DNA from: an uncultured Eubacteriales bacterium
GTDB lineage: Bacteria > Bacillota > Clostridia > Oscillospirales > Acutalibacteraceae
Length of the DNA stretch: 64,000 bases
NCBI GenBank assembly: GCA_934486615.1
Contig: CAKSQO010000002.1
Location: forward strand, 112,425-176,424
Direction: 5' to 3'
A program made the position numbers and the translations under genes. Below, piece after piece: positions 7,060 to 25,421 of the stretch; within the stretch, counting starts at the first letter, position 1; the number at the start of each line of letters is the position of its first letter. The notes under the pieces were generated by a model. The model made no database searches and was not told the DNA's origin. It saw only the letters and a program-made list of their open reading frames with translations.

Positions 7060-7392
7060 TTATTGAACGCCGGCCGCAGCCTTGTAGCCCTCACCCCAAA
7101 TTCGCAGCGAATCGAGCACGGGCGCAAGGCTCTGCCCGAGTCCGGTCAGCTCGTACTCGACACGCGGCGGCACCTCGGCATAGACCTTACGGCTGACAAG
7201 GCCGCTGTCCTCCATCGCGCGAAGCTGCGCGGTGAGCACCTTTTGCGACACGCTGCCTATCGACTTTTTCAGCTCGCCGAAGCGCTTTTTGCCGGGCATA
7301 AGGTCGCGCAGAATAAGCACCTTCCACTTGTCGCCTATCAAGGTCAGAGTCGTCTCGACCGGACAGGCGGGCAGTTTATTTATATCGGTCAC
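7060..7392 (-). CDS. HxlR-family (MarR-like) transcriptional regulator
   Basis: CPVETTLTLIGDKWKVLILRDLMPGKKRFGELKKSI is the HxlR signature. GTG at 7392 with a GGGAG RBS is preferred, but ATG at 7434 remains possible. Confidence 0.7.
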   Translation of the reverse strand: MTDINKLPACPVETTLTLIGDKWKVLILRDLMPGKKRFGELKKSIGSVSQKVLTAQLRAMEDSGLVSRKVYAEVPPRVEYELTGLGQSLAPVLDSLRIWGEGYKAAAGVQ

Positions 7393-7667
7393 GTTTATCA
7401 CTCCCGTTAGTTTCCAAAAGTAACTTTGTTTCAAATATTAGCATACTTCCCGCAAAAAATCAAGCAAAAAAATTTTTTCGCGACAAAAAAACACCCGCAG
7501 CCCGCGTAATAACCAATCGTTTCCTTACGGTAACCGCCCAATAGTTCCTTTTCGGTAACTACGGCACAATAAAGTGCTTACTTTACAAGAGAAACCGATG
7601 CGGTTACAATAAAGTCACGCCAAGCGGAGAAAGCTCCGCGACGAAAAACTTTTTGGAGGAATTTATT

Positions 7668-8297
7668 ATGAAAATTGCAGTTGTATGCGCTAACGGTAAA
7701 GAGGGCAGGCTTATCGTCGACGAAGCCCTTTCAAGAGGGCTTGACGTAACCGCCGTTGTGCGCGGTGAGAACCGTTCGGCAGCCGAAAAGGCTGTCATCA
7801 AGGACGTGTTCGAGCTGGAAAAGAGCGACCTCGACGGCTTCGACGCAGTTGTTGACGCGTTCGGCGCGTGGACGAACGACACCGTCGGCGGGATTCCCGC
7901 AGCGGCGAAGCTGCTGTGCGACCTGCTTTCGGGCAGCGACACGCGTCTGCTCGTCGTAGGCGGTGCAGGCAGCCTTTATGTAAACCGCGAGCACACGCTC
8001 TGCGTAGCTGACGGCGCGGACTTCCCCGACGCGTTCAAGCCGCTCGCGGCCGCGCACGCCGAAGCGCTCGATATGCTCCGCACACGCAGCGACGTCAGGT
8101 GGACCTACATCAGCCCCGCAGGTGACTTTCAGGCCGACGGCGAGCGCACCGGCGAGTACACCCTCGCAGGCGAGGAGCTGACGCTCAACTCCAAGGGTGA
8201 GAGCGTGATAAGCTACGCCGACTACGCTATCGCAATGGTCGACGAGGTCATTGGCGGCAAGCACGTCGGGCAACGCATCAGCGTCGTCTCAAAGTAA
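7668..8297 (+). CDS. NAD(P)H-binding (NmrA/atypical SDR-like) oxidoreductase
   Basis: MKIAVVCANGKEGRLIVDEAL has a Rossmann GxxGxxG-like N-terminus with RBS TGGAGGAA upstream. It is divergent from hxlR, the classic regulator/reductase pair. Confidence 0.7.
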   Translation: MKIAVVCANGKEGRLIVDEALSRGLDVTAVVRGENRSAAEKAVIKDVFELEKSDLDGFDAVVDAFGAWTNDTVGGIPAAAKLLCDLLSGSDTRLLVVGGAGSLYVNREHTLCVADGADFPDAFKPLAAAHAEALDMLRTRSDVRWTYISPAGDFQADGERTGEYTLAGEELTLNSKGESVISYADYAIAMVDEVIGGKHVGQRISVVSK

Positions 8298-8336: not shown

Positions 8337-8948
8337 ATGGCTACGGACGAATACCTTAAAATACTGGTTGACGACATTCATTCAGTCACGGTCGCAACGC
8401 TCGGCGCGGACGGCCGCCCGCAGACTCGCGCTATTGATATGATGCTGTTTGATGATAATGGCATATACTTCCTGACCGCGAAGGGCAAGTCGTTCCGTGA
8501 GCAGCTGAAAAGTCAGGGCTTCGCCGCCGTTTCGGCCGTTAAAGGTAAAGTCTCGCTCTCCCTGCGCGGCAGTGTCAGGAGCATAGGGCAGGAAAAGCTC
8601 GACCTGATTTTGGAGAAAAACAAGTATATGCAGCGCATCTATCCGCATCGCACGCGCGGCGCGCTCGAGGTGTTCTGCCTGTTCGACGCGCAGGGCGAAT
8701 ACTTCGACATAAGCGACCCCGCGCACATCAGACGCGACAGCTTCACAATCGGCTCAGCGCGTGTCTGTGACGTCGGTTATTTCATAGGCGAGGACTGCTT
8801 CGGCTGCGACAAGTGCCTTAAAGTCTGCCCGCAGGGGTGCATTGATGTATCACACACGCCTGCGGTCATCGACCGTCACGGCTGCCTCGGGTGCGGGCAA
8901 TGCGCCGAAGTCTGCCCCGCGCACGCCGTGAAAAGGAGGACACTGTGA
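8337..8948 (+). CDS. Pyridoxamine 5'-phosphate oxidase-like (FMN-binding split-barrel) protein fused to a 2x[4Fe-4S] ferredoxin domain
   Basis: The N-terminus has a PNPOx-like fold signature. The C-terminus carries CFGCDKCLKVCP and CLGCGQCAEVCP (CxxCxxCxxxCP twice). Its stop overlaps the GTG start of the macro gene as GTGA. Confidence 0.65.
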   Translation: MATDEYLKILVDDIHSVTVATLGADGRPQTRAIDMMLFDDNGIYFLTAKGKSFREQLKSQGFAAVSAVKGKVSLSLRGSVRSIGQEKLDLILEKNKYMQRIYPHRTRGALEVFCLFDAQGEYFDISDPAHIRRDSFTIGSARVCDVGYFIGEDCFGCDKCLKVCPQGCIDVSHTPAVIDRHGCLGCGQCAEVCPAHAVKRRTL

Positions 8949-9718
8949 CTCAGGACGAGCGCCGAAAGTATATGATAAGCGCACTTCTTTGCGAGCGCTC
9001 GGGGCGCGACCGAATCGCCGCCCCGAGCGCGCCGGACGAGCAGCGCAGGCTGCTTCGCGCACTGATGAACGTGCGGCCGCCGCGGCCGATAAGCGCGGAC
9101 TTTCTGAAAGTTCAGGATGAATATCTGCGCGAAAGATTGGCCGAAAGAAAAGTAACCGACGCGGCCGCTTTAGACGAAATTCAGCCGCACATCTGCCTGT
9201 GGCAGGGCGACATCACGACGCTTAAATGCGACGCGATAGTAAACGCCGCAAACAGCGCCATGCTCGGCTGCTTCTGCCCCAACCACGGCTGCATCGACAA
9301 CGCGATCCATACGTTCGCGGGCGTGCAGCTGCGGCTCAAATGCGCCGAAATTATGGCGCACCAAGGCGCCGCCGAGCCTGTCGGGCGCGCGAAGATTACT
9401 CCCGCTTACAACCTGCCGAGCCGCTATGTTCTGCACACCGTCGGGCCGTATGTCGAGGGCTTGACCACCGCGCGCGACAAAGAGGCGCTTGCCTCGTGTT
9501 ACCGCTCCTGCCTTGAGCTGGCGGCGGCAAACGGGCTTGAAAGTGTGGCGTTTTGCTGCATTTCAACCGGCGAGTTTCACTTCCCAAACGCGCAGGCGGC
9601 CAAAATAGCCGTGGCGACTGTCAGGGAATTTTTAACCGCACCGACGAGTGTGAAAAGGGTGATTTTTAATGTTTTCAAAGCTACAGACCGCGAAATCTAC
9701 GCGCGGCAGCTCGGCTGA
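8945..9718 (+). CDS. Macrodomain protein (ADP-ribose-protein hydrolase, SirTM-partner type)
   Basis: GDITTLKCDAIVNAANSAMLGC...GCIDNAIH...YVLHTVGP are macro-domain motifs. GTG at 8945 follows a strong AAAGGAGG RBS, and the ORF-track ATG at 8891 lies inside the upstream gene. Confidence 0.75.
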   Translation: MTQDERRKYMISALLCERSGRDRIAAPSAPDEQRRLLRALMNVRPPRPISADFLKVQDEYLRERLAERKVTDAAALDEIQPHICLWQGDITTLKCDAIVNAANSAMLGCFCPNHGCIDNAIHTFAGVQLRLKCAEIMAHQGAAEPVGRAKITPAYNLPSRYVLHTVGPYVEGLTTARDKEALASCYRSCLELAAANGLESVAFCCISTGEFHFPNAQAAKIAVATVREFLTAPTSVKRVIFNVFKATDREIYARQLG

Positions 9719-10538
9719 CGTAAAGCGGCTTAAAGCCGCGCTTGAAGCGGCTGACGCGGTCATAATCGGAGCGGGCGCGGGCCTTTCGGCCTCGGCGGGC
9801 TTCACATATTCGGGCGAGCGATTTGAGCGATACTTCTCCGATTTCGGCGAAAAATACGGCTTTTCCGATATGTACTCGGGCGGGTTTTATCCGTTTTCGT
9901 CAGACGAGGAATACTGGGCGTACTGGAGCCGCTACATCTTCGTCAACCGCTATCTGGACGCGCCGAAGCCCGTTTACAGCGACCTGCTTTCGCTTATAAA
10001 GGGCAAGGACTGCTTTGTTATAACGACGAACGTCGACCACTGCTTTCAAAAGGCGGGCTTTGACAAAAAGCGGCTGTTTTACACGCAGGGCGACTACGGC
10101 CTGTTTCAGTGCAGCGAGCCGTGCTGCCGGGAAACCTTCGACAACGAAGCGGCCGTGTGCGAGATGCGCAACAGGCAGCGTGATATGCGCGTGCCGAGCG
10201 AGCTTGTGCCGCGCTGCCCGCACTGCGGCAGGCCGATGACGTTGAATTTGCGCTGCGACGACCGCTTTGTCGAGGACGAAGGCTGGCACGCGGCGGCGCA
10301 GCGGTACGCCGACTTTCTGCGCACACGGCGCGAGCAAAAGGTGCTGTTTCTTGAGCTTGGGGTTGGCTTCAACACCCCTGTGATAATCAAGTATCCGTTC
10401 TGGCGTATGACGGGTGATAATCCCCGCGCGACCTACGCCTGCATAAATCGCGGCGACGCGTTTTGCCCCGACGCGATAAGCGAGCGCGCGATATGCATCG
10501 ACGGCGATATCGCCGAAATTTTATCCGAGCTGAAATAA
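9669..10538 (+). CDS. Sir2-family protein of the macrodomain-linked (SirTM) class
   Basis: The GAGAGLSASAG, TTNVDH, QGDY and CPHCG motifs are present. It overlaps the macro gene by about 50 nt, as in the conserved macro-sirTM operon. Confidence 0.75.
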   Translation: MFSKLQTAKSTRGSSADVKRLKAALEAADAVIIGAGAGLSASAGFTYSGERFERYFSDFGEKYGFSDMYSGGFYPFSSDEEYWAYWSRYIFVNRYLDAPKPVYSDLLSLIKGKDCFVITTNVDHCFQKAGFDKKRLFYTQGDYGLFQCSEPCCRETFDNEAAVCEMRNRQRDMRVPSELVPRCPHCGRPMTLNLRCDDRFVEDEGWHAAAQRYADFLRTRREQKVLFLELGVGFNTPVIIKYPFWRMTGDNPRATYACINRGDAFCPDAISERAICIDGDIAEILSELK

Positions 10539-10539
10539 A

Positions 10540-10585
10540 AAACGCCGAAGAGGCAAGCGAAATGCTGACCTCTTTCGGCGTTTGA
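10540..10585. terminator. Bidirectional terminator between sirTM (+) and the vanZ-like gene (-)
   Basis: AAAACGCCGAAGAGG ... CCTCTTTCGGCGTTTGATTTT forms the hairpin. Confidence 0.65.
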
Positions 10586-10587
10586 TT

Positions 10588-12039
10588 TTATTCGGGTTTT
10601 GCGGCAGCGCGCCTTTGCTTCAGCATTTTGATCGCGGTGCTCAGCTCGTATGCGGCGAGGAAGCCCATCGCTCCGCCAAGAGTGTTGCCGAACAGGTCGT
10701 CAAGCTCGGCTATACCGAGCGAGGTGACATACTGCGTGACCTCTATCGCAAGCGAGAACAGCAGCGGCACGAGCAAAAAGCGCTTCTTTTTAAGCTGCAT
10801 ATAGAGCGACGCGCCGAACGGCACGAACAGCCAGACGTTGTTTATCACGCCTGTGCGGCGGCTCATACTGACAAGGAACACCTGCGCATAGGAGAACAGC
10901 TGCAAATTCAGCCGCGTGTCCCCCGTTTCGCGGAACATCAGCGTTTCGTACAATATGAATACGACGTAGAGCACCGACAGCACTATACGCAGCTTCTTCG
11001 GTGCGACGATGATAAGCAGCGTGACGAACACGCCGAACAGAACGACGGTGAAAGGAAATCCGCTTAAAATATTGTCCACATTTAGTAATACATGCCCGCC
11101 GCGGCTGAGCTGCAGGCGCTCCGAGCCGCTGATTTTCACGCCGTAATAGCCCTTTTTCACGCGGTACGGCTCGCCGTCTGCGCCGAAGTACATCTCTTTT
11201 TCAATGGTGCCGTCGCGGTAATACGTCCGTGTGAGTGAGGTGTAGCCTGCCGTTGTCGCGGCGGGCTTACCGTCAGCGTCAAGATAGGTTATGCGGATGA
11301 CGCGGCCGTCCTTATTGTAATCATTTTTAACTCCATAGCAGCCGGACATGGTGGGCGCAGGCGCTCCCGACGCGTCGAAAGCCATTTCTTTGATCACGCG
11401 GTCGGACGAGTCGCGCTCATAGCGCTTTATCGCAGGGAAGACGCTCGACTGAAGAAGCAAGCCGCCCTCGCCGTAGTAGTAGACGGCGCAGTTATTGCCG
11501 TTATCGTCGTACTCGCGGCGCGTCTGCCGGTAGCCGCCCGAGCACTTGACAGTCTGCATTTGCGAGTCAAAATAAGTGTCGGTGTCGGCCTTGCCGCTCT
11601 CGGTGAGCGTGCGCTTTATGTAGGTGTAGCCGCCCACCGTCTGCATCGCGTTGCCGTCACGGTCGAGGTAGGTCAGCATGTCATAGCCGTCAAAGTGCTC
11701 ATAAGAAATACCCGCATAGCCGCCCTTACCGAGCATAGGCTCGCCGTTTTCGTCCAGATAGCGCTCGAGTATCAGCTTGCCGTCGGAATTATTCGTCTTT
11801 TCAAGCACGGCATAGCCGATGTCGACCGCGACCGTCGCCTGCCCCTTTTTATCCGTATAGACCGTGCGGGTGATGTTGCCCTCGGTCAGCTCGTTTTTTT
11901 CGAGCTCGGCGGAGATCGCTCCCGCGTTATGGTTGACCCCGCCAATCGGAATCAACAGCATTAGCGAAGCAACCGTAAAGGCGATAAGGAACGCCGCGGC
12001 AATGATATGGCGCAGCGTGCCCGTTTTAGAGTTGAGCAT
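10588..12039 (-). CDS. VanZ-family membrane protein with an N-terminal extracellular repeat domain
   Basis: The C-terminal about 170 aa have VanZ-like TM helices (..LFVPFGASLY..EVTQYV..). The N-terminal about 300 aa follow a TM anchor and carry 4-5 repeats of about 38 aa of the pattern GYxxxxxxY-D-DG. Confidence 0.6.
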   Translation of the reverse strand: MLNSKTGTLRHIIAAAFLIAFTVASLMLLIPIGGVNHNAGAISAELEKNELTEGNITRTVYTDKKGQATVAVDIGYAVLEKTNNSDGKLILERYLDENGEPMLGKGGYAGISYEHFDGYDMLTYLDRDGNAMQTVGGYTYIKRTLTESGKADTDTYFDSQMQTVKCSGGYRQTRREYDDNGNNCAVYYYGEGGLLLQSSVFPAIKRYERDSSDRVIKEMAFDASGAPAPTMSGCYGVKNDYNKDGRVIRITYLDADGKPAATTAGYTSLTRTYYRDGTIEKEMYFGADGEPYRVKKGYYGVKISGSERLQLSRGGHVLLNVDNILSGFPFTVVLFGVFVTLLIIVAPKKLRIVLSVLYVVFILYETLMFRETGDTRLNLQLFSYAQVFLVSMSRRTGVINNVWLFVPFGASLYMQLKKKRFLLVPLLFSLAIEVTQYVTSLGIAELDDLFGNTLGGAMGFLAAYELSTAIKMLKQRRAAAKPE

Positions 12040-12157: not shown

Positions 12158-12676
12158 TCAGTCTCTGCGGAACAGGTCTCGTGTGTACACCTTCTGCTCC
12201 ACATCGTCAAGGCAGGAGTCGTAGCGATTGGCGATGATCGCCTGACTGCGGCGCTTAAACTCGTCAAGGTCGTTGACGACCTCGCTGCCGAAGAAGGTTG
12301 AGCCGTTCTCGAGCGTCGGCTCATAGATGATGACGGTCGCGCCCTTGGCCTTGATGCGCTTCATTACGCCCTGAATGGACGACTGGCGGAAGTTGTCTGA
12401 GTTCGACTTCATCGTCAGTCGGAACACGCCGACCACGACCTCGTGCTCCTTGCCGGGGTCGTAGTGCTCGTTGACCTCGTAAGCGCCCGCGATCTCAAGC
12501 ACACGCTCGGCGATAAAGTCCTTGCGCGTGCGGTTGGACTCGACAATGGCCCGACCGTGTGCAGAACATAGCAGCTCGGCCGGTTGTATGCGGGAGTTAT
12601 CTGCAAGGCGTCTGCCGCAAACACAATGTCGGAGCATCTTCCGGACGTTCTTACCGATCATCAAAGGGAGCACCAA
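12158..12676 (-). pseudogene. ugd: Mosaic gene remnant: 3' fragment of UDP-glucose 6-dehydrogenase fused in another frame to an about 80-nt fragment of a macrodomain gene
   Basis: [19 protein letters not shown]...[35 protein letters not shown]...[23 protein letters not shown] is the C-terminal UDP-binding domain of Ugd. In a different minus frame, 12545-12625 encodes [18 protein letters not shown] and is about 87% nt identical to 9401-9460 of the intact macro gene. The catalytic N-terminal Ugd domains are absent. Confidence 0.6.
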
Positions 12677-15953: not shown

Positions 15954-16992
15954 TCGGAATGCCCTTCAGTGCGTTCTGGACATATTCGGTGGTCAGGATC
16001 TTCTTTACAGTGCCTTCCACGTCCAGGCGGTTGGTATTGTGGCTGGTGTAGGACTCGTCCGCCATGGTATGTACCTCGCCCTTGACGACGAACTTGTCAT
16101 AGTTGAGGTCGCGATTATCGGCGGAAACACGGAAATAGTGGCCCATATCCTCGCTGCGCAGGCGCTCCTCGCGGGTCATCAGCGTCTCAAACAGCTTCTC
16201 GCCGTGACGGGTGCCGATGATATTCGTGCCGGTGTCGCCGAACAGCTGCTGGACGGCCTTGGCAAGGTCGCCGATGGTGGACGCGTCGGCCTTCTGAATG
16301 AACAGGTCGCCCGGGTTTGCGTGCTGGAACGCGAACATAACAAGGTCGACCGCCTCGTCAAGGTTCATAAGGAAGCGGGTCATATTCGGGTCGGTGATGG
16401 TGATGGGGCTGCCAGCCTTGATCTGGTCGATGAACAGCGGAATTACGCTGCCGCGGCTGCACATTACGTTGCCGTAGCGGGTGCAGCAGATGGTCGTGCC
16501 GCCGCGCTCGGCCGCTACGCGGGCATTGGCGTAGATGACGTGCTCCATCATCGCCTTGGAAATGCCCATAGCATTGATAGGATAAGCGGCCTTATCGGTC
16601 GAAAGGCAGACCACGCGCTTGACGCCCGCGTCAATGGCGGCGTGCAGCACGTTATCCGTGCCGATTACGTTGGTCTGGACCGCCTGCATCGGGAAGAACT
16701 CGCACGACGGCACCTGCTTGAGAGCGGCTGCGTGAAAGATGTAGTCGACGCCGGGCATAGCGTCGCGAACGGACTGCGGATTGCGCACGTCGCCGATGTA
16801 GAACTTCACCTTCTTTGCAGTGTCAGGGTGCTTGGCCTGAAGCTCATGACGCATATCGTCCTGCTTTTTCTCATCGCGCGAGAAAATGCGGATTTCCTTC
16901 AGGTCGGAGTCAAGAAAGTGCTTTAAAACCGTCGAGCCAAAAGACCCCGTACCTCCCGTGATCATAAGGGTTGCGTTATTGAATGTAGACAT
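15946..16992 (-). CDS. UDP-GlcNAc 4,6-dehydratase/5-epimerase (CapD/Cap5E/FnlA-like)
   Basis: MITGGTGSFG precedes the extended SDR-e motifs YxxxK (YGNVMCSRGSV region). The 348-aa length is typical of FnlA. Confidence 0.75.
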   Translation of the reverse strand: MSTFNNATLMITGGTGSFGSTVLKHFLDSDLKEIRIFSRDEKKQDDMRHELQAKHPDTAKKVKFYIGDVRNPQSVRDAMPGVDYIFHAAALKQVPSCEFFPMQAVQTNVIGTDNVLHAAIDAGVKRVVCLSTDKAAYPINAMGISKAMMEHVIYANARVAAERGGTTICCTRYGNVMCSRGSVIPLFIDQIKAGSPITITDPNMTRFLMNLDEAVDLVMFAFQHANPGDLFIQKADASTIGDLAKAVQQLFGDTGTNIIGTRHGEKLFETLMTREERLRSEDMGHYFRVSADNRDLNYDKFVVKGEVHTMADESYTSHNTNRLDVEGTVKKILTTEYVQNALKGIPNV

Positions 16993-16994
16993 TT

Positions 16995-18407
16995 TTATTT
17001 CCTTCTTTCTATAATTGTCGTAATTTTATCATACAAAATACTATTCCTTAGTTTTTTGTATGCGACAGCAATGACAAGCAGTACAATAACAAATGACAAA
17101 ATCATTCTATACTCAAAAGATGACAATTCAATCACTATTTGAAAAGCAATCAGCGCCATTATTATCAAAGAGTACCTGTCTATAAAGCCTTTTTCCATTT
17201 GCTTTTTTGCAAGCAATGCACGAATAAGCCAAACGCATACATAGCTGACAAGCGTTGCAAATGCAGCTCCATACAAACCATAGCCCGGAATAAGAATAAT
17301 ATTTAGCACTATATTCACACACGCTGCTGCCAAGGTTGAATATAATAAAACGCTCGTCTTTTTTGTTGCAGTATATATCGTACCAATAAGAGATGACAGT
17401 GAATTAAAAACAAATGAAAAAATCAGAATACAGCCAACCATCCAGGCGCTATAAAAATCATTTTTGTATAGAACAACCGCTAAATACTTAGATGCAAAAA
17501 TAAGTAATGAGGCAGCCACAAGCAGTACCATCATAACGCTTGTATATACAGTTTTAAAAAATTTCGACCCATCTTTTTTTTTGAACTCGTCAAATATTGA
17601 TATTTGAAAAGCCGAAACAAACAGAGACATAACCATCGTCAGCAGAGTAGGAATTTTATACGCAATCGAGTATAATCCAACTTCTGCAGATGACAAAAAC
17701 CATAGTATTACATATTTATCCGACGAGTCACTTACCCACCAACTTATGGAGTTCGGGATCATGGGGACGGAAAAACGCAACATATCTTTATATACATTGC
17801 TCGGTATCGAAAGCGGATTGACTAAATATGTCCACAATTTGTTATAAATGATAATTATGAACGATACAAGCAGATGTGACATCGTTGCCGCCAGAAGATA
17901 TCCAATAATTCCGTAATTTCTAATAACCAGAAAATAAATATTCAAACTCAAGGTTGTCACTGTGCTAATAACACCCATTATTGAATATTGTGTCACCTTA
18001 TTAATTCCCTTCAGGAACTGAATTAACACTGTATGCAAATTCATCACAAAGAAGAAAATAACTATCCAGATTCTATACTTCGCTATTGAACTGACAAAGG
18101 AAAATAATGGTGACAGCAGGATAAGAACTCCGCTCCCCAGCACAACTAACGTTATACCGATAGTAAGTACATATCGATTGTCGTAATCATTGTCTATTGC
18201 GAAACGCAGGATAGCTTCAGATATTACAAGCGTAAGAAACGGTGTCAACAGTGTAACGGTTGTCACAATTATATCGTAAATTCCATATTCTTCTGTAGAA
18301 AGAATCGACGTATATAATGGTATAAGAAGGAAGCTGAGTATCTTACTGGAAAACTGGCCGATTGTCATTGCAGCTGTATTGGATAGGAGTCTTTTGTATT
18401 TATTCAA
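16995..18407 (-). CDS. wzx: Wzx-like oligosaccharide flippase (MOP superfamily)
   Basis: It is 470 aa with about 12 predicted TM helices and the polysaccharide-biosynthesis-protein architecture. The gene is AT-rich. Confidence 0.7.
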   Translation of the reverse strand: MNKYKRLLSNTAAMTIGQFSSKILSFLLIPLYTSILSTEEYGIYDIIVTTVTLLTPFLTLVISEAILRFAIDNDYDNRYVLTIGITLVVLGSGVLILLSPLFSFVSSIAKYRIWIVIFFFVMNLHTVLIQFLKGINKVTQYSIMGVISTVTTLSLNIYFLVIRNYGIIGYLLAATMSHLLVSFIIIIYNKLWTYLVNPLSIPSNVYKDMLRFSVPMIPNSISWWVSDSSDKYVILWFLSSAEVGLYSIAYKIPTLLTMVMSLFVSAFQISIFDEFKKKDGSKFFKTVYTSVMMVLLVAASLLIFASKYLAVVLYKNDFYSAWMVGCILIFSFVFNSLSSLIGTIYTATKKTSVLLYSTLAAACVNIVLNIILIPGYGLYGAAFATLVSYVCVWLIRALLAKKQMEKGFIDRYSLIIMALIAFQIVIELSSFEYRMILSFVIVLLVIAVAYKKLRNSILYDKITTIIERRK

Positions 18408-19513
18408 TCAGTATCACCTCCCAGAGCTTCTCTCAAAAAGCTCTTAGAAGAAATCTCAATTTTTCTTAAGCCGTCTTCAATCGCTTCATAATCGATATGT
18501 TCAAAGTTCAATTCGCACTCATTTGCTCCCGCAATGCGGTTCATCAATCCTATTTCGTTTAGTAAGTCAATAACACGGCTTGTTCTTGTCCGAGGTAAAA
18601 CCACGTTGAAATCTTTTTTGTAAATCAGCGAAAACGCTGTACCGTGAAACGAATTTGTGAGAATATAATCAGCATTCTTTATAAGCGATAAAAATTCAGT
18701 CGGTCCTGCATCTCGTATTTCATATGATTTCTTCTTCGAGTAACTTATAAATCCGACAAGCATTCGAACTTTGAGATTTTTTTCTTTCGCAATTCTAAAC
18801 GCAAGCTTTTCCATTTCCTCATCCTTCTGCAATTCATACACGAGAATATACGGATCAGTTTTTTGCGACTTATCTTGCAATAAGGTATTATACTCGTTGG
18901 CAGAAAGCAGGAAAGTTGGATCCAATGTACAGGTGTTTTTAACACCATTTTCTTGAAGAAACACAGAGAGACTTTTTTCTCTTACTCCCACATAATCCAG
19001 TTTACCGGTATATTTAATTAAATCACTAGTCTGGGCTTCGGATAAAGCAGAAACATCCCCACAACTTGCAGCATATGCCACATTAGTTTTCCCTTTAATA
19101 AGTTTTGACTGTCCAAAAAATTCTGCTTGAAAGCCACCTGTAATATCTGGATTCCATATTTGATCGCTGCCAAGTATCACAGCATCATATATGTAGGTCA
19201 TATCGTATGGAATCACCGATAGATTACGCTTTTTAAACTCTTGGAATCGTAGGTACTTTCTTCTATAACCTTTTTCAAAGTACAAAGACATCATCATTTT
19301 CTTGTAAATTGATGCGAGCTTTTTTTTGCTTCTACAAGCAGTTTTTATAAACTCAGCCGGCTCAAACTCAGAGCCATTTCCTTTACATTGAAAGTCCATA
19401 ATATCGACATGGTAGCCAAGGTTTTTTTCAATATAATGAGCCATGGCATATGTTTGAAGAACTGCACCGTAATTAGGAACATTATGGAACGTAAAAATAC
19501 ACGCTTTTTTCAC
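18404..19513 (-). CDS. Polysaccharide pyruvyl transferase family protein (CsaB/WcaK-like)
   Basis: The N-terminus CIFTFHNVPNYGAVLQTYAMAHY is characteristic of PF04230 pyruvyl transferases. Confidence 0.65.
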   Translation of the reverse strand: MKKACIFTFHNVPNYGAVLQTYAMAHYIEKNLGYHVDIMDFQCKGNGSEFEPAEFIKTACRSKKKLASIYKKMMMSLYFEKGYRRKYLRFQEFKKRNLSVIPYDMTYIYDAVILGSDQIWNPDITGGFQAEFFGQSKLIKGKTNVAYAASCGDVSALSEAQTSDLIKYTGKLDYVGVREKSLSVFLQENGVKNTCTLDPTFLLSANEYNTLLQDKSQKTDPYILVYELQKDEEMEKLAFRIAKEKNLKVRMLVGFISYSKKKSYEIRDAGPTEFLSLIKNADYILTNSFHGTAFSLIYKKDFNVVLPRTRTSRVIDLLNEIGLMNRIAGANECELNFEHIDYEAIEDGLRKIEISSKSFLREALGGDTD

Positions 19514-20697
19514 TTAATCTCCTCCAAATACAAGCTTTCATATGCTGTCGCCATCACCTTATCAGAATACGTATATTCTGCCTCAAGTGCTATTTGGTTT
19601 GAATGAATATCCTTATAATTAATCCACTTGTTCCTTATTATGTCTGCCAGTTTCTTAACATCGCCAAATTCAACAAATTGTGTATGATCAGAAAGCGCAA
19701 TGCTCTCGGATCCGCCATTTTTAAACCCCACAACCGGAGTTCCGCAAAGCAACGCCTCTGCAACAGTCATTCCATATGTTTCTCTCCGACTTAGTGTTAA
19801 CACCAAGTCTGCCTTGCGGTAGAAATCAGCTAATTCATTCTTATCATTCACGGATCCAATTATTCGAACATTATCCTCTTCTACCTTTTTGCTTGCTGTT
19901 CTTCCGACAACTTCAAATCGTATTTTTTCATTTTTCAGGAGCCTTGCCAGTTCCAGCAAATAAAATCCACCCTTGCTGTCCTTGTCTGCAGTGTTGAAAT
20001 CAGCTGTAACAAACAAAACTGTACGCCAATCGTCCTCCTTCAAAAATCTCTTTTCAAAGAAGATGCTTGCATCTATTCCATTCATTATGCAGCGTTGCTG
20101 CACTCCCGAAAATATTGGCGATTCCAGCGCTCTCTTATTTTGCCATGGGGAGACAGATACCGCATAACACTGTTTAGCTCCGGCAAACGCCTTTTTCATT
20201 TTCTTCCAAGCGTTTGCCGTTGTGTCTCTCCATGTATTTGCCGCAAACCTTAGCTGAGGACAGTTTCCGCAACCGGATTTCCACTTTTCACAATTGAATG
20301 CATGGCTGCACGATCCGGTATAAAAAAACTCTGCATGATTGGTAACGATAAAAGGAATCTTATTCTGTTTAAGATATCTCAATAAAGAGTATATATTGAC
20401 AACATTGCAATTTGCCGAGTGGATATGAATAACGTTTGGTTTCTCTTTTTCAATAATCCGTTTAATTTTAAGAGTTGAAACAGGAGCAAATCCGTACTGA
20501 TAGCCCAAAACATACGCTACACGTTTGTATACTCCCAGTTCATGCGGTACACACACACCATACGTCTTCAGCTTCTCGTGTTGCTTAGTAATATAAGGGG
20601 CACATAAAATATGCTCGAAATCGCTATATTTTGCAATGCTGTCAATTATTGCACCTGTGCTCCCATAATCGGCACAATTAATATGCAGAACTTTCAT
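19510..20697 (-). CDS. Glycosyltransferase family 4
   Basis: The C-terminal GT4 motifs are present (RRETYGMTVAEALLCGTPVV). Confidence 0.65.
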   Translation of the reverse strand: MKVLHINCADYGSTGAIIDSIAKYSDFEHILCAPYITKQHEKLKTYGVCVPHELGVYKRVAYVLGYQYGFAPVSTLKIKRIIEKEKPNVIHIHSANCNVVNIYSLLRYLKQNKIPFIVTNHAEFFYTGSCSHAFNCEKWKSGCGNCPQLRFAANTWRDTTANAWKKMKKAFAGAKQCYAVSVSPWQNKRALESPIFSGVQQRCIMNGIDASIFFEKRFLKEDDWRTVLFVTADFNTADKDSKGGFYLLELARLLKNEKIRFEVVGRTASKKVEEDNVRIIGSVNDKNELADFYRKADLVLTLSRRETYGMTVAEALLCGTPVVGFKNGGSESIALSDHTQFVEFGDVKKLADIIRNKWINYKDIHSNQIALEAEYTYSDKVMATAYESLYLEEIK

Positions 20698-21880
20698 TTA
20701 GTTGCCTCGCCCCTACTGAATTTCGCTGATTCTTTTCATACTCTGAAAATCCCACGGATATAATAAACAGCAAGAAAACATTATATGTTGGATATATAAT
20801 CAAATGACTAACGCAGGATAGAGTGATATAAATTAGTATCGCAGCAGTAACGGCAGCAAAGGATTCACACTGTGCTTTCCTCAGTTTTACTGCTTTAAAA
20901 ATGAAATTAAATAAAAGTGAGATATAAAAAATCAATCCAATTGCACCATAATCATAAAGCACTTCCAAAAAATCATTGTGAGCAGATGAAATCGATATTT
21001 TATCAAGATAAACAGCATTATATCCATGCCCGATTACCTGCTTAACAATGTTTGAATTCTTAAATGCTTCCCAAACAAGTGCATAGGTAGTTGTACGGCC
21101 TGACCCACCATCCTCCTGCAAACTCTGCATACGTTCGATAATAGTTATATTTATTGATTTAGATAGATACTCCGATACATACACAAGCACTATACACACA
21201 ATCATCAAGAGTACCATTGCCCCGGTCTTTTTTCTTCCTCTTTTATCGTCTTTTTCAAGTAACGGTGGAAGAAACCCACAGAGAATAATGGCAATCAACG
21301 CTGTTCTTTTTCCGGAGATAATTGTCAATAATGCTGCGATGAAAATCATCGAGTATTTGACCGTCTTTTTATCAACCAAATAACATAATGGCAAGAGGAG
21401 AACACAATAATATATTGAGTTTATTCCCCCGGAACTCCAATATCTATTGCCACTCAGAAGCCATATAGCATATCTTAGTGAGAACACATAAAATGCGATT
21501 ACTCCAATGTTAATTATCGTCTTTCTTTCATCGTCCTCGACTTGTATGAGAAGTAGGAACGAAACAATCAAGAAAGATCCCCACCACATCTGGGTCAGAA
21601 AGTTTGTCAGTATATCTATTGCGCCTGAATAGTTTTGTAGCCCTGTTACGAAAAACCAAAAACTGGTTACCACTGTAAGAATGATTATGCTTTTATTCGG
21701 AATGAACCGTACACGAAGAACTATAAAAAACGAAAGTGCAATAATAGCAACCCTTCCGATAAGTAAGAATTGCTCGATAGTCGATCCCATTGTAAAATAG
21801 GAGTTCATTCGAAAAAACAGATACACAAACACTATCAGTATATAGTTCCTGAGTTTTTTACAAGTCAAAGATTGATTCAT
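20678..21880 (-). CDS. wzy: Wzy-like polysaccharide polymerase / O-antigen ligase family membrane protein
   Basis: It is 400 aa, polytopic, with a large loop region, and sits inside the glycan locus. Confidence 0.55.
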   Translation of the reverse strand: MNQSLTCKKLRNYILIVFVYLFFRMNSYFTMGSTIEQFLLIGRVAIIALSFFIVLRVRFIPNKSIIILTVVTSFWFFVTGLQNYSGAIDILTNFLTQMWWGSFLIVSFLLLIQVEDDERKTIINIGVIAFYVFSLRYAIWLLSGNRYWSSGGINSIYYCVLLLPLCYLVDKKTVKYSMIFIAALLTIISGKRTALIAIILCGFLPPLLEKDDKRGRKKTGAMVLLMIVCIVLVYVSEYLSKSINITIIERMQSLQEDGGSGRTTTYALVWEAFKNSNIVKQVIGHGYNAVYLDKISISSAHNDFLEVLYDYGAIGLIFYISLLFNFIFKAVKLRKAQCESFAAVTAAILIYITLSCVSHLIIYPTYNVFLLFIISVGFSEYEKNQRNSVGARQLNESSAY

Positions 21881-21919
21881 ATTTTGAATTACCTCTCTCG
21901 TTACGGCAACATCGCCATC

Positions 21920-23080
21920 TTACTTTGCCTCCAGCATTGAGAGAACACGTTTACTTTGGAATATATTGTTTTTCTCATCTAAAACAAATTTCTGTGCACT
22001 ATGTCCTTTTCTGTTTCTTTCGCTTCGCACAGTATCGAAAGTAGTCTTTATTGCTTTCGCAATCCCCTCTGCGGACTCATCCTCGATCAAGTAGACATAC
22101 TGCTTATATTCCTCCGGCATACCGGGAAGATCCGTCGTAAGAACCGGTGTGCCGGATGCCATATATTCCATATTCTTTGAAGGGAACGAATACTTGGTAA
22201 ACTCTTCATGGGTCGGGCGCGGATTGATAAGCAAGTCCGCCTCTGTTTCTGCCCAAACCACTTCATCATTCATAGCAATTCCGTGGTAAACCACATTCGG
22301 ATGCTCCTGCGTCACCTTCTGCAGTTCATCAACATAAGGTCCATTTCCATAGATATGCAGTTCTGAATCCGGTACATCGGCAAGGACAAATCCGTCCACC
22401 ATAGACTTTACTCCGTATCGAGCATCCAGCAATCCGGCATACATACACTTCTTAGTACAACTCGTTTGCGCTTTTACTTCCGGCTGCGGTTTAATTGTTG
22501 AATCGCACAATGCCTCAACGATCACATAAGGTTTATGCTCGGGGTTTATCGGTTCGTTCATCGCTTCTGTAAGGAGAACATATCCGGTACACTTCTGTAT
22601 AATCTTCCGTACAAGTCTTACATGATTTTGATTAGTCCCAGTCACCATCAGCTCCGGAAGGTCGGTTACGATTCCGATACATGGTTTCTTTCGCAAACGA
22701 GCTGCTGTCACAGCGCCATAGGCCACCGATGCATTCAGTACATCAGTAACGACCGCATCACAGCCGCCAAACATAACTGTTCCAAATGCAGAAATCGTCT
22801 GCCACAAGATCTTGATACCCTTGACATTCAGTACTGAACAATAATGGTACCTTACCTTTCCCCGCTGGACGCTATCGGCCGGGAGAAACTTGTGCGGACA
22901 ATTCGTTCCGGTCACAGGTCGTGCCGTTACAGCCCGTACCACTGCACCGTTTTCTGCCAAACCTTGTATCATCAGACGATTGAATTTCTGTGCCTGCTGC
23001 CCCGGTGCTTTCGGACTATTATCAAATAGGTTTGCGAAGTCTTGCGCATCCATTGCGCTGGACGCATAATCAATTCTCAT
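21920..23080 (-). CDS. Glycosyltransferase family 4
   Basis: The C-terminal EX7E-like GT4 region is present (FPSKNMEYMASGTPVLTTDLPG). Confidence 0.6.
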   Translation of the reverse strand: MRIDYASSAMDAQDFANLFDNSPKAPGQQAQKFNRLMIQGLAENGAVVRAVTARPVTGTNCPHKFLPADSVQRGKVRYHYCSVLNVKGIKILWQTISAFGTVMFGGCDAVVTDVLNASVAYGAVTAARLRKKPCIGIVTDLPELMVTGTNQNHVRLVRKIIQKCTGYVLLTEAMNEPINPEHKPYVIVEALCDSTIKPQPEVKAQTSCTKKCMYAGLLDARYGVKSMVDGFVLADVPDSELHIYGNGPYVDELQKVTQEHPNVVYHGIAMNDEVVWAETEADLLINPRPTHEEFTKYSFPSKNMEYMASGTPVLTTDLPGMPEEYKQYVYLIEDESAEGIAKAIKTTFDTVRSERNRKGHSAQKFVLDEKNNIFQSKRVLSMLEAK

Positions 23081-23094
23081 CTGTGTTCTCCACT

Positions 23095-24189
23095 CTATTT
23101 AGCAATAAAATCCAAGAGCCTTGCCTTCGTCATTTTCTGCTCATTCAGAACGTTTTCTAAGGCATTCGCACATTTTACTTCAAACTTTTCCCAATCGATA
23201 TCGCGGTAATATGCCCAGATTTCATCTGCTATATTACTACCGTCAAGTGACACGGCAATACCAACCTGTCGTTCCGTAACAACATCGCCCATGTGGGAGC
23301 CTGCCGTGCATATCTGGGGGATACCAAAAATAATACCGTCATAGTATTTATTACCCATTGCATTCCCCGTAGTGTGCCCACAGTCATAAACGTTATGGAT
23401 CATATCTGTATTTTCAGCAAACTCATACCGATCGGTTGGCATATAAGCGCCGTGAAAAAAAACATTATTATAATTCTTACTCCGGGCATACTGCTCCATA
23501 TCCCTTCCGTCCTGCTGCATTCTTCCGTAATAATGCAGTTCAAAACGAGAGTCATTTCCCAGAGCATCCATCAGTTTTTTATTCACATCGACCTGTCGGA
23601 CAAGCCCCCAATAGCTAATGCGAATTGTATCGCGTCCCCTTGCATCCTGTTTACGGAGCATTTTATGATTCAGGGAGTCCTCCAGATAGTTGTGAATCGT
23701 CATAACATTTTCTTCAGTGGAGAGAAACTTCCGGAACGCATTAGAGCTGACGAAAGTCACGGCGCTGTTTGTAGAAAGGATACCAACCAGCTTGCGATAT
23801 ACCGGGATATACTCGTAAGATACATCTCGAAAATCCAGAAGATACCGCCCTTTGTACTTTCGCACCAGATAGTCCAGCAAGGTCAATCCCGGTGTCGTAT
23901 GCAGCACAATAATTCTGTCATATGAGTTGTTTTTTAAGACATCCAATGCAAACTTACGATACTTTGCAAAATACTTCAGTTTTTTCTTGAACGGAAGTTG
24001 CTCTTCCAGATGCTCCTCAAACTTATATGCCTTTGAAATTCTCTGCGGCACTTCCGCATCAGGCTTTCCGTCACGATCCCAGTAAATCAGTTCAAACTGA
24101 ATATCCCGTCCCTTGAGCGCATCCAGATAAAAGTTCATATAAGGCATATATGCGATTTTCCCAAAGCCCAATAACAGAACTTTCATCAT
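23095..24189 (-). CDS. Putative glycosyltransferase (family uncertain)
   Basis: It is a 364-aa ORF inside the glycan locus. The MKVLLLGFGK N-terminus resembles GT-B proteins, but no unambiguous motif was seen. Confidence 0.4.
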   Translation of the reverse strand: MMKVLLLGFGKIAYMPYMNFYLDALKGRDIQFELIYWDRDGKPDAEVPQRISKAYKFEEHLEEQLPFKKKLKYFAKYRKFALDVLKNNSYDRIIVLHTTPGLTLLDYLVRKYKGRYLLDFRDVSYEYIPVYRKLVGILSTNSAVTFVSSNAFRKFLSTEENVMTIHNYLEDSLNHKMLRKQDARGRDTIRISYWGLVRQVDVNKKLMDALGNDSRFELHYYGRMQQDGRDMEQYARSKNYNNVFFHGAYMPTDRYEFAENTDMIHNVYDCGHTTGNAMGNKYYDGIIFGIPQICTAGSHMGDVVTERQVGIAVSLDGSNIADEIWAYYRDIDWEKFEVKCANALENVLNEQKMTKARLLDFIAK

Positions 24190-25397
24190 GCTTTTCCTCC
24201 AATTCTGCGATACAAATCCTCATAGAGCTTGGTGTTAACCGATCTGGCGTAGACCGCTTTTCCGTATTTCTGTGCGTTATCTGCCAATCGGCTGCAATAC
24301 TCCGGCTCGTCCTTCAATTTTAAAATACCTTCGGCAACACCATCCGAATCATCGCAATCAAATGCCATACCGATCTGTTCTCTTTTGAACATATCATTGT
24401 AATCCGATCCCTCATCTGCTGATGTTACAATAACTCTGTGACACGCCATTAAAAGTCCGGCTTTGCTCGGAACTGAATTTCCAATAACTCCACGAGGAAG
24501 CGGAATCAAACATGCTGAGCACGCACTGTACACATGCGGAACCATCTCTTGCGGCTCCAGCGGCAGAAACACGATATTATCAAGCTTCTTCTCTTGAGCA
24601 GCATGAATAAATTCATCCTTCTGACTTCCCTGGCCAATCATCTGGAACACTATTTTCTTATCCTGCTTCAATTTTTCGGCAACTCGGAGCACCATCTTAT
24701 AATCAAAGTTCATACCCATAGTTCCTGCAAACTGAACATAAAAGCAGTCTTTTTTTAAGTCGTATTTTTTTACAAACAAATTATCTTCCCACGGAATTTC
24801 ACGAACGCTCTTGTCGTCATACCAGTCCGGGATAACTGTAATTTTGGCAGCCGGAACGCCTTGCTCTATCACTTTTTGCTTCATATCCTCTGAAATCACA
24901 GAGATATGATCTGCTCTTCTATAGGCAACCTTCTGAAACATATAGAAAACTTTCTGCATCCATTTCTGCTTCATAGCACCGTTCGCGATAGAAGCCCCCG
25001 GGAACATATCCTGACTATTATAAATAACCGGAGTCTTCACGCAGCTTTTAGCAAATGCGATTGCAAAAGGAGCCCACGGACACGATTGAACCATCATTAC
25101 ATCAAAATCCTGCTGAGCCTTGAAAACCTTTCGAGCCTTAAAACAATATTTAACACCCACCAAATATCTCTTGGCGAATGCTTTTTTTGCAACAGTTTCT
25201 ATATTAATAGTTTCATAAGAGAAGTTTTCAAGTTCTTTCAATCTCTCGGGACAATCCGGATTAATTCCGGTAGAATGGCTCTCGATCAAATGCACCTTAT
25301 GTCCATAAGAAACAAGATCTTCGATTAGAGCTGTGTATAGATGCCATGAAGGACCCGGTGTATCAAGGCCGCTAGACATGAACAACAAAATATTCAT
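24186..25397 (-). CDS. Glycosyltransferase family 4 (WcaI-like)
   Basis: A GT-B fold N-terminus precedes a C-terminal GT4 region (ACLIPLPRGVIGNSVPSKAG). Confidence 0.6.
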   Translation of the reverse strand: MNILLFMSSGLDTPGPSWHLYTALIEDLVSYGHKVHLIESHSTGINPDCPERLKELENFSYETINIETVAKKAFAKRYLVGVKYCFKARKVFKAQQDFDVMMVQSCPWAPFAIAFAKSCVKTPVIYNSQDMFPGASIANGAMKQKWMQKVFYMFQKVAYRRADHISVISEDMKQKVIEQGVPAAKITVIPDWYDDKSVREIPWEDNLFVKKYDLKKDCFYVQFAGTMGMNFDYKMVLRVAEKLKQDKKIVFQMIGQGSQKDEFIHAAQEKKLDNIVFLPLEPQEMVPHVYSACSACLIPLPRGVIGNSVPSKAGLLMACHRVIVTSADEGSDYNDMFKREQIGMAFDCDDSDGVAEGILKLKDEPEYCSRLADNAQKYGKAVYARSVNTKLYEDLYRRIGGKA

Positions 25398-25421
25398 TAA
25401 CTTCTCCTTTTTGGCAGCACT

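Follow-up and report, generated by a model that had tools for sequence, protein, structure and literature searches.

A SirTM and zinc-dependent macrodomain gene pair downstream of a PNPOx-like split-barrel/ferredoxin gene in a predicted redox operon of gut Clostridia

Introduction

Characterized class-M sirtuins (SirTMs) transfer ADP-ribose to proteins with high specificity, and zinc-dependent macrodomains (Zn-Macros) remove ADP-ribose from protein Asp and Glu residues (PMC4518038, PMC11490716). The sole known SirTM substrate is the lipoyl carrier protein GcvH-L, whose gene immediately precedes the macrodomain gene in the operon that also contains sirTM (PMC4518038, PMC11490716). In Staphylococcus aureus and Streptococcus pyogenes this extended operon comprises gcvH-L, the Zn-macro gene, sirTM, and, downstream of sirTM, the lipoate ligase gene lplA2, together with genes for OYE and LLM oxidoreductases; links of the staphylococcal and streptococcal operon with oxidative stress and with flavin oxidoreductases have been described (PMC4518038, PMC11490716). 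Minimal, or "lone," pairs of SirTM and Zn-Macro are found in, e.g., Enterococcus faecalis, Treponema pedis, and the source organism of MorMacro; the targets of lone pairs are unknown, and MorMacro fails to demodify GcvH-L (PMC11490716).

Among regulators of the MarR/DUF24 (HxlR) family, thiol-switch regulons have been described for YodB-AzoR1/YodC, HypR-HypO, and CatR, and the sensor Cys14 of HypR lies in the peptide EGCPVE (PMC3351151). Here we compare with these systems a locus in a 64-kb stretch of DNA (the window) from the genome of a spore-forming member of the gut Clostridia.

Results

Positions 8337 to 10538 of the window hold three close-set genes on the forward strand. They encode a 203-amino-acid protein with a PNPOx-like, flavin-type split-barrel domain and a 2x[4Fe-4S] ferredoxin (PNPOx-Fd; 8337 to 8948), a Zn-Macro that is a predicted protein-ADP-ribose hydrolase (8945 to 9718), and, from an ATG start, a SirTM (9669 to 10538). 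The Macro start GTG (8945 to 8947) overlaps the PNPOx-Fd stop TGA (8946 to 8948) as GTGA, with AGGAGG at 8934 to 8939, 5' of the GTG, and the Macro and SirTM reading frames are genetically linked by an overlap of 50 nt. Directly before these genes, a gene for an NAD(P)H-binding protein (NAD_binding_10/NmrA-like; Pfam NAD_binding_10, E = 1.8e-14) occupies 7653 to 8297 on the forward strand, its probable start being ATG 7668 after a GGAGG. An HxlR/DUF24-family transcription regulator (Pfam HxlR, E = 7.8e-33) is encoded divergently on the reverse strand at 7060 to 7434, and its true start is probably near ORF residue 15, about position 7392. Open reading frames and Pfam matches thus bore out all gene positions of the original prediction, and the GTG-stop overlap and the two flanking genes that it had named are real.

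The divergent intergenic control region (7435 to 7652) contains a 22-nt tandem direct repeat (copies at 7513 to 7534 and 7538 to 7559) and a promoter-like, sigma-70-type site on the forward strand (7582 to 7610; consensus match only), and is a putative operator. A hairpin followed by a T-run (about 10541 to 10590, forward strand; consensus match only) lies 3' of the sirtuin gene and is the likely terminator both of the operon and of a convergent VanZ-like gene downstream of SirTM. The four-gene unit is framed by these two signals, and the layout is best explained as an operon for the NAD(P)H-binding protein, PNPOx-Fd, Zn-Macro, and SirTM that diverges from the HxlR/DUF24 regulator.

The regulator has the winged helix and the N-terminal Cys at the start of helix 1 that typify HxlR/DUF24 thiol switches, and redox sensing is predicted for it. 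Its Cys24, in a CPVE motif that matches the sensor Cys14 peptide of HypR, was invariant in 40 of 40 neighboring homologues, and its NCBIfam match was to an RrpB-like redox transcription factor, below the cut-off. Like the YodB, HypR, and CatR regulons, the window combines an HxlR-family regulator bearing an N-terminal sensor-type Cys with divergent genes for NAD(P)H/flavin reductases; unlike it, the described MarR/DUF24 regulons have neither an ADP-ribosylation pair nor a PNPOx-ferredoxin fusion.

The sirtuin matched S. pyogenes SirTM (PDB 5a3a) at E = 5.6e-71 and deacylase sirtuins (SIRT5) at only 0.03. The Pfam SIR2 score (17.7 bits, under the cut-off of 24) was rejected as a class call by itself, since it would mis-score this sirtuin, and the PDB sequence search settled the assignment to SirTM. 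In S. pyogenes SirTM (SpySirTM), Gln137 stands at the position of the catalytic His, with Asn118 and Arg192 as partners (PMC4518038). In the 5a3a alignment N121, Q140, and R195 of the window protein correspond to N118, Q137, and R192, so that Gln replaces the catalytic His; C148, C152, C183, and C186 align to the Cys4 structural zinc site of SpySirTM, and GVGFNTP at residues 231 to 237 fits the pyrophosphate-binding class motif GVGx[NT]TP.

The macrodomain was recognized by Pfam Macro (E = 2.7e-37) and by the curated NCBIfam model NF003163 (protein-ADP-ribose hydrolase; 355.1 bits versus a cut-off of 272), and it aligned over residues 1 to 255 with PDB entries 8rsi, 5kiv, and 8rsl (E = 7e-78 to 1.8e-73). 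Zn-Macros are defined by a Cx(4)HxC Zn-loop in place of the Gly-rich catalytic loop, plus NAAN (PMC11490716); the window protein has the loop C109-FCPN-H114-G-C116 and NAAN at 100 to 103. Residue 1, counted from the GTG, aligns to the N terminus of the solved Zn-Macros, and residues 1 to 80 align to the N-terminal three-helix bundle of 8rsi (1 to 255 against 3 to 258; by homology of sequence only). These comparisons show SirTM and Zn-Macro to be bona fide members of a predicted mono-ADP-ribosylation writer-eraser pair. With the catalytic residues of both proteins all conserved, the SirTM is a predicted protein mono-ADP-ribosyltransferase that, as a member of its class, would lack deacylase activity. 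The sirtuin had been proposed to be of the SirTM class and not an NAD-dependent deacetylase, and to be paired with a macrodomain; the PDB match and the Gln agree with the former, and the macrodomain is indeed present and of the zinc type.

In PNPOx-Fd, the split barrel (residues 1 to 130) scored 36.4 bits with Pfam PNPOx_N (cut-off, 28.1), and several Fer4 models matched as well. The ferredoxin (residues 147 to 203) carries the two CxxCxxCxxxCP motifs of a dicluster 2x[4Fe-4S] ferredoxin (C154/157/160/164 and C183/186/189/193), and all eight Cys are invariant in 29 sequences, across members 31 to 63% identical to the window protein. The acidic residue E121 is likewise invariant. The AF2 model (pLDDT, 82.9) has the PNPOx-like fold, and its best Foldseek matches were PNPOx-related, Nim, and GS26 split barrels (probability 1.0), the top targets being 2hhz, 5jab, 2hq7, and 2ig6. 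Residues 1 to 130 thereby resemble 2hhz, the Nim-type proteins 2ig6 and 2fg9, and general stress protein 26 (probability 1.0; TM to target, 0.64 to 0.77), whereas the C-terminal dicluster ferredoxin is absent from those proteins, and we found no solved structure spanning both domains. By family and modeled fold, PNPOx-Fd is a probable flavin-type split barrel, with FMN, F420, or heme as a candidate cofactor. Its homologues number hundreds to thousands overall, including 626 close ones and 122 representatives of 50%-identity clusters at E <= 1e-30, and public sources label the family as "4Fe-4S binding protein" only.

The locus shares with the extended SirTM operon the writer and eraser families, all catalytic motifs, and tightly overlapping genes. 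PNPOx-Fd fills the GcvH-L slot, directly upstream of macro with overlapping or abutting frames, and both operons are tied to flavin-dependent oxidoreductases and, by the type of regulator in the window, to oxidative or electrophile stress. Unlike the extended operon, the window locus has no GcvH-L directly upstream of macro, where PNPOx-Fd lies, and no LplA2 downstream of sirTM, where the VanZ-like gene converges; their absence, as predicted from the letters, is thus confirmed for the locus, which therefore lacks the lipoylation step. A tblastn search (E < 1) with an E. coli GcvH query, a weak negative, gave no GcvH homologue in the 64-kb window, the same query gave no match in the related loci L001 to L087, and the ten mid-size window ORFs scanned had no LplA-type or ligase Pfam match. 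Further differences are the divergent HxlR/DUF24 regulator, the strictly anaerobic gut Clostridia as hosts, and the reductases, which instead of OYE and LLM proteins are NAD_binding_10 and PNPOx-like in the window and nitroreductase and small PNPOx in related loci. Like lone pairs, the window pair is without GcvH-L and LplA2; unlike them, it forms the 3' end of an HxlR-linked redox operon and has a recurrent, specific neighbor. In the literature covered, which included few subscription journals, we found no prior description of SirTM with a ferredoxin, pyridoxamine-oxidase, HxlR, or nitroreductase partner, in keeping with the suggestion that the context was new.

Gene neighborhoods were then mapped by operon walking and tblastn, with intergenic spacing taken from HSP coordinates; greedy six-frame ORF calling was discarded, as it produced many antisense artifacts on GC-rich loci. 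Among the best 80 species of at least 593 genome matches, picked by SirTM similarity alone, 70 loci were informative; cultured carriers include Clostridium sp. Marseille-P3244 and Clostridia bacterium i40-0019-1A8. The gene directly upstream of Macro (or, in loci without macro, of SirTM) encoded PNPOx-Fd (31 to 63% identical to the window protein) in 26 of the 70, and 28 of the 70 had a PNPOx-Fd gene at some position. Among the species listed with such adjacency, the PNPOx-Fd match stopped 6 to 17 nt before the Macro match began. Other occupants of the upstream slot were nitroreductase (7 loci), small PNPOx (5), an unknown 272-amino-acid protein (5; family F8, with no Pfam or PDB match), the NAD_binding_10 family (3; directly upstream of Macro in species L065, L070, and L080), and HxlR itself (3), and 16 loci had none or another gene; in about 60% of close SirTM relatives, the slot holds something other than PNPOx-Fd or no gene at all. 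Partner types were interleaved on the SirTM tree. Thirteen species had SirTM with no macro nearby, and in five (L019, L038, L069, L074, and L082) PNPOx-Fd was next to a SirTM without macro. Related operons elsewhere contained nitroreductase, Zn-ADH, and Flavin_Reduct reductases. The small ORFs preceding the radical-SAM gene had no Pfam match. Of the 52 loci with enough upstream DNA, at least 28 had a divergent HxlR gene no more than 4.5 kb away, which is an undercount. Net charge and pI of the macrodomain, compared in a search for electrostatic complementarity of the GcvH-L type, did not differ informatively between loci with and without a PNPOx-Fd neighbor.

Seen from PNPOx-Fd, 76 of 80 metagenome loci picked by PNPOx-Fd similarity alone were informative, and 71 of the 76 (93%) had Macro and/or SirTM directly downstream, in a redundant sample that collapses to 14 lineages at 90% identity, with 67 loci falling in just two of them. 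The gene order was Fd-Macro-SirTM in 46 and Fd-SirTM-Macro in 25. All three close homologues examined singly had the triad of PNPOx-Fd, Macro, and SirTM, with differing flanks. A divergent PNPOx-Fd subgroup (B) occurred both with and without Macro-SirTM (without in 2 of 3 look-ups). The adjacency is recurrent (26/70 SirTM loci and 71/76 PNPOx-Fd loci), and the condition named as refuting the original prediction, an adjacency unique to one genome, clearly does not hold. Many gut Clostridia share the triad as a conserved module, PNPOx-Fd is the commonest and tightest neighbor of these pairs, and the pairs are usually not "lone" but close HxlR-controlled flavin-reductase operons.

Discussion

Our preferred reading, to which we give a little less than an even chance, is that the window holds a redox-stress operon under HxlR control whose last genes form a cassette for reversible ADP-ribosylation, and that PNPOx-Fd is the foremost candidate for its client. 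Oxidant or electrophile stress would induce the operon through the sensor Cys of HxlR; electrons may pass along a short chain, made up of the NAD(P)H-binding protein and PNPOx-Fd, that serves reductive detoxification or repair; SirTM would mono-ADP-ribosylate an operon-encoded redox protein, most likely PNPOx-Fd, and so gate or protect it; and Zn-Macro would take the mark off again. That PNPOx-Fd is a client of the pair, we infer from its place in the operon. Of the variant ADP-ribosylation switch originally proposed, the recurrent triad stands; the role of PNPOx-Fd as its target or effector does not follow, as about 60% of close SirTM relatives differ in the slot. In other lineages the cassette is joined to other flavin reductases, and the system is therefore better called a redox-operon-linked SirTM/Zn-Macro variant than a strictly PNPOx-Fd-specific one.

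A serious competitor, though one we consider somewhat improbable, is co-regulation only: Macro-SirTM would be a mobile two-gene cassette that inserts 3' of the other genes in reductase operons under HxlR/DUF24 control, its substrate (e.g., a carrier protein, lipoyl or other, or a number of stress proteins) would be encoded elsewhere, and PNPOx-Fd would simply be the commonest last gene. The pair was always found at the operon 3' end, with a variable upstream gene family, so that the addition of a cassette to HxlR-regulated reductase operons explains the data equally well; from this terminal position, adjacency to PNPOx-Fd could likewise reflect 3'-end insertion and not specific interaction. 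The 16 loci with no recognized or another partner, the subgroup B operons without the pair, and HxlR as a more general companion than any one reductase point the same way. However, the PNPOx-Fd subgroup of the window keeps the pair directly downstream in 93% of informative loci, the adjacency outlasts both the swap of Macro/SirTM order and the loss of macro, start/stop overlap or near-abutment is conserved, and in the known precedent the substrate is encoded by the operon itself, at the corresponding position.

It is improbable that the pair acts instead on a small molecule or cofactor, for example through NAD+/ADP-ribose turnover that feeds or signals to the flavin reductases, or that the macrodomain is mainly an O-acyl-ADP-ribose or ADP-ribose-phosphate hydrolase. 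A fusion of PNPOx, Fe-S, and NUDIX domains (P0124) hints at a link to ADP-ribose metabolism but is a single representative; an ECF riboflavin-type transporter component in many related operons and the 13 species lacking a nearby macro would also suit such a role. Against it, characterized SirTMs add ADP-ribose to proteins with high specificity and Zn-Macros remove it from them (PMC4518038, PMC11490716), and the catalytic residues for its addition and removal are all conserved in the window proteins. Chance or genome-specific adjacency without function is refuted: the exact combination of NAD_binding_10, PNPOx-Fd, and the pair was not seen outside the window, but the triad occurs amid unrelated flanks in at least 26 genomes at the species level and in 14 metagenomic lineages, and recurrence across dozens of species puts the arrangement far outside what chance would give.

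To return to PNPOx-Fd as the client, it is conceivable, though we regard it as doubtful, that this protein represents a second, lipoylation-independent class of SirTM substrate, an anaerobe flavin/Fe-S electron-transfer protein whose activity or oxygen-sensitive cofactors would be gated through reversible mono-ADP-ribosylation under an HxlR thiol-stress switch. DraT and DraG reversibly ADP-ribosylate the nitrogenase Fe protein, an Fe-S electron donor; DraT is an ARTC-type transferase, DraG is an ARH-family hydrolase, and the target residue is Arg. If PNPOx-Fd is the client, both systems would switch an Fe-S electron-transfer protein through a writer/eraser pair, and the operon would be a sirtuin-based functional analogue of nitrogenase Fe protein control that is widespread in the gut microbiota. 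The likeness is one of analogy only, as DraT/DraG differ from SirTM/Macro in their unrelated folds, Arg target, and regulatory logic. The triad, three small soluble proteins, makes PNPOx-Fd a directly testable candidate for the target of the pair. ADP-ribosylation signaling would thereby be tied to redox and electrophile defense in abundant commensal anaerobes, and given the Nim-like fold and the nitroreductase neighbors, the system may also be connected with the metabolism of nitro-drugs or quinones.

Natural fusions occur within the PNPOx-Fd family. One (P0137) combines a domain of the NAD(P)H-binding family (E = 9e-15) with PNPOx-Fd; two others (P0148 and P0206), each a single cluster representative, join the PNPOx domain to Macro and look like deletion chimeras. 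No second SirTM was present in the 64-kb window, and a 39-amino-acid macro remnant lies at 12490 to 12603 on the reverse strand.

Operon organization and enzyme identity

Genes 1 to 3 are co-directional open reading frames (ORFs) on the forward strand and encode a 203-amino-acid (aa) PNPOx-ferredoxin protein (PNPOx-Fd; 8337-8948), a macrodomain protein (Macro; 8945-9718), and a macro-linked sirtuin (SirTM; 9669-10538, ATG start at 9669). The GTG start of gene 2 (8945) overlaps the TGA stop of gene 1 as GTGA, with AGGAGG six bases 5' of the GTG, and gene 3 starts 50 nt inside gene 2. A gene for an NAD_binding_10 protein (7653-8297, forward strand, probable start 7668) lies 39 nt upstream of gene 1 and is separated by a 218-nt intergenic region from a divergent HxlR-family regulator gene (7060-7434, reverse strand). 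The original prediction of a three-gene locus at 8337-10538, with the macro GTG overlapping the PNPOx-ferredoxin stop and with HxlR and NAD(P)H-binding flanks, was thus upheld by ORFs, Pfam matches, and overlap coordinates. Consensus matches to a promoter-like site (7582-7610, forward strand) and to a hairpin followed by a T-run on the same strand 3' of gene 3 would bracket a four-gene unit (NAD_binding_10, PNPOx-Fd, Macro, and SirTM). A 22-nt tandem direct repeat (CCAATnGTTyCyTTwCGGTAAC; 7513-7534 and 7538-7559), located in the HxlR/operon intergenic region just 5' of the promoter-like site, is a possible operator.

In PDB sequence searches, gene 3 matched SirTM of Streptococcus pyogenes (5a3a; E = 5.6e-71) and a fungal macro-SirTM fusion (8rsn; E = 2.7e-26), whereas deacylase sirtuins reached an E value of only 0.03. 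Upon alignment to 5a3a, N121, Q140, and R195 of gene 3 fell on the SirTM catalytic trio (N118, Q137, and R192), and the class motif GVGx[NT]TP and the zinc cysteines were kept. Gene 2 matched solved Zn-Macros from end to end, N-terminal helical bundle included (E = 7e-78 to 2e-62). It contains both a Cx(4)HxC zinc loop and a NAAN motif, and its score exceeded the cut-off of the curated protein-ADP-ribose hydrolase model of NCBIfam. Since E values, catalytic residues, motifs, and cut-off agree, assignment of gene 3 to SirTM and of gene 2 to Zn-Macro has the strongest support that sequence alone can give; the predicted SirTM class held, and the predicted macrodomain partner is of the zinc type.

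The predicted absence of GcvH-L and LplA2 agrees with the searches of the 64-kb window. A tblastn search with an approximate E. coli GcvH query detected nothing GcvH-like in the window or in loci L001-L087; the gene that follows sirTM is VanZ-like and convergent, and ten further ligase-sized ORFs of the 64-kb window encode proteins unrelated to LplA-type ligases. A gcvH-L/lplA2 pair may be located elsewhere in the genome, beyond the visible 64 kb.

The PNPOx-Fd family

The N-terminal half of gene 1 matched Pfam PNPOx_N (36.4 bits; cut-off, 28.1), and its C-terminal 55 residues hold two CxxCxxCxxxCP motifs. The AlphaFold model (pLDDT 82.9) consists of a split barrel (residues 1 to 125), a disordered linker (132 to 142), and the ferredoxin domain; Foldseek grouped the barrel with PNPOx-related, Nim-type, and general-stress-protein-26 structures, and neither Foldseek nor a PDB sequence search returned a solved structure spanning both domains. 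The protein has 626 close homologues (~202 aa), and a divergent subgroup, itself 31 to 40% identical to the window protein, has 3022 homologues; at E <= 1e-30 the family comprises 122 cluster representatives (50% identity). Among members 31 to 63% identical to the window protein, the eight cysteines and barrel residues including T47, G50, K51, E121, and R133 are invariant. Public sources name it only "4Fe-4S binding protein." One cluster representative (P0124) is fused to a NUDIX domain, and two (P0148 and P0206) join the PNPOx N-domain to Macro, perhaps as deletion chimeras or misassemblies.

Conservation of the triad

One genome per species was scanned with the window SirTM, which confirmed at least 593 relatives, of which the best 80 (66 to 76% identity) were kept; most of these come from metagenome-assembled genomes of Oscillospiraceae, Lachnospiraceae, and further Clostridia of human, rabbit, chicken, and ruminant gut. 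Among the 70 of these best 80 loci with enough upstream DNA (tblastn maps and tally), 26 (37%) have PNPOx-Fd as the first gene 5' of Macro, or 5' of SirTM if there is no macro, and 28 have it anywhere in the locus, with partial matches at two further edge loci. In the adjacent species listed, 6 to 17 nt separate the PNPOx-Fd match end from the Macro match start, so the close spacing is a conserved trait. A metagenome scan that started from the PNPOx-Fd family alignment yielded 80 loci, a redundant set that collapses to 14 lineages at 90% identity, and Macro and/or SirTM is directly 3' of PNPOx-Fd in 71 of 76 informative loci. Three close homologues looked up singly showed the triad in unrelated flanks. 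The triad is therefore conserved, and recurrence from both sides rejects an adjacency unique to this genome. One human-gut lineage (L128, L131, L137, L139, L141, L143, L149-L152, L154, L155, L158, L160, L162, L165, and L166) shows Fd-SirTM-Macro rather than Fd-Macro-SirTM, with a ~100-nt gap 3' of PNPOx-Fd.

Other upstream partners

The anticipated recurrence of PNPOx-ferredoxin beside SirTM in Clostridia stood for those 26 loci, but other genes hold the slot elsewhere. In the 70-locus sample these were a nitroreductase (7 loci), a 131-aa PNPOx (5), a 272-aa protein without a Pfam match (5), NAD_binding_10 (3), HxlR itself (3), and DUF1848, Flavin_Reduct, PCC, and a cyclophilin-like protein (one each); 16 loci had no recognizable gene there. 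Partner types were interleaved on a neighbour-joining SirTM tree. In six species (L026, L053, L068, L078, L081, and L087; e.g., L087:4918-5736), the 272-aa family, unmatched in Pfam and PDB sequence searches, is the one placed immediately between HxlR and Macro-SirTM; it is another candidate partner.

The divergent PNPOx-Fd subgroup has its own conserved operon type, a reverse-strand HxlR gene followed by a small ORF, radical-SAM/SPASM, nitroreductase, and PNPOx-Fd, which ends in Macro-SirTM in ten species (L025, L028-L031, L039, L041, L056, L061, and L085) and in L170 and lacks the pair in L168/L169 and L171. The small ORF (70 to 113 aa) gave no match in a Pfam search; its pairing with radical-SAM/SPASM resembles peptide-modification or cofactor-maturation clusters. 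As the upstream gene varies and Macro-SirTM forms the operon 3' end in all cases, the common denominators are the HxlR/DUF24 regulator and flavin-type reductases.

Within the fetched flanks (<=8 kb each side), SirTM lacked an intact macro gene in L011, L019, L033, L038, L050, L060, L062, L069, L074, L076, L079, L082, and L087, with short macro remnants 5' of SirTM in L062 and L087; this was unexpected, the class being defined by macro linkage. The operon version seen most often in human gut (L036, L047, L059, and many of L088-L127) carries, ahead of PNPOx-Fd, genes for a riboflavin-type ECF-transporter S component, a small PNPOx, and a SnoaL-like protein that is secreted, which suggests that the module includes flavin supply. 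In one locus (L088:3803-7008), a type-A operon ends at PNPOx-Fd without Macro-SirTM, and a second HxlR gene and the first part of a type-B operon come immediately after it; the two PNPOx-Fd paralogues of that genome might share a single ADP-ribosylation pair.

Regulation and proposed function

A strict count, which overlooks several cases, placed an HxlR/DUF24 regulator no more than 4.5 kb away in at least 28 of 52 loci. The regulator's N-terminal cysteine, invariant in 40 of 40 homologues, lies within a CPVE motif identical to that of the HypR sensor peptide (PMC3351151); the operon adjoins this thiol-switch-type regulator gene.

A flavin/Fe-S protein and a writer/eraser pair with predicted activity in protein mono-ADP-ribosylation are encoded on one transcript, and their translation is probably coupled. 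Stress would induce the operon, and electrons would pass from NAD(P)H via the NAD_binding_10 protein to PNPOx-Fd, a route supported by a natural fusion of both families, P0137, whose N-terminus is NAD_binding_10-like (31% identity to the NAD_binding_10 protein of the window, E = 9e-15). PNPOx-Fd would itself be reversibly ADP-ribosylated; it occupies the slot that GcvH-L holds in the staphylococcal operon, and we regard it as the leading candidate for a client of the pair, at less than even odds. The main rival, to which we give a sizeable minority chance, is that the Macro-SirTM cassette is only co-regulated with the redox operon and its substrate is encoded elsewhere.

SirTM and Zn-Macro enzymes are already known. 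SirTM papers class pairs of this kind as stand-alone, and a 2024 study (PMC11490716) gives unknown targets for pairs that lie outside the extended operon. The accessible SirTM literature contained no description of a PNPOx-Fd/HxlR redox-operon context, in agreement with the novelty originally claimed. The locus, widespread in gut anaerobes, offers a concrete candidate substrate and regulatory setting for these pairs.

Other features of the window

A 39-aa macrodomain remnant (12490-12603, reverse strand; 54% identical to the operon's macro) was identified within an ORF at 12158-12676 (reverse strand), in a different frame next to a truncated UDP-glucose/GDP-mannose dehydrogenase C-terminal fragment, an arrangement that resembles a rearrangement scar separating the VanZ gene from the polysaccharide locus. 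A low-GC island (~16000-26000; 37 to 46% versus 54 to 59% elsewhere), full of reverse-strand ORFs and containing a polysaccharide pyruvyl transferase gene (25422-26480), probably represents a capsule/EPS gene cluster gained by horizontal transfer.
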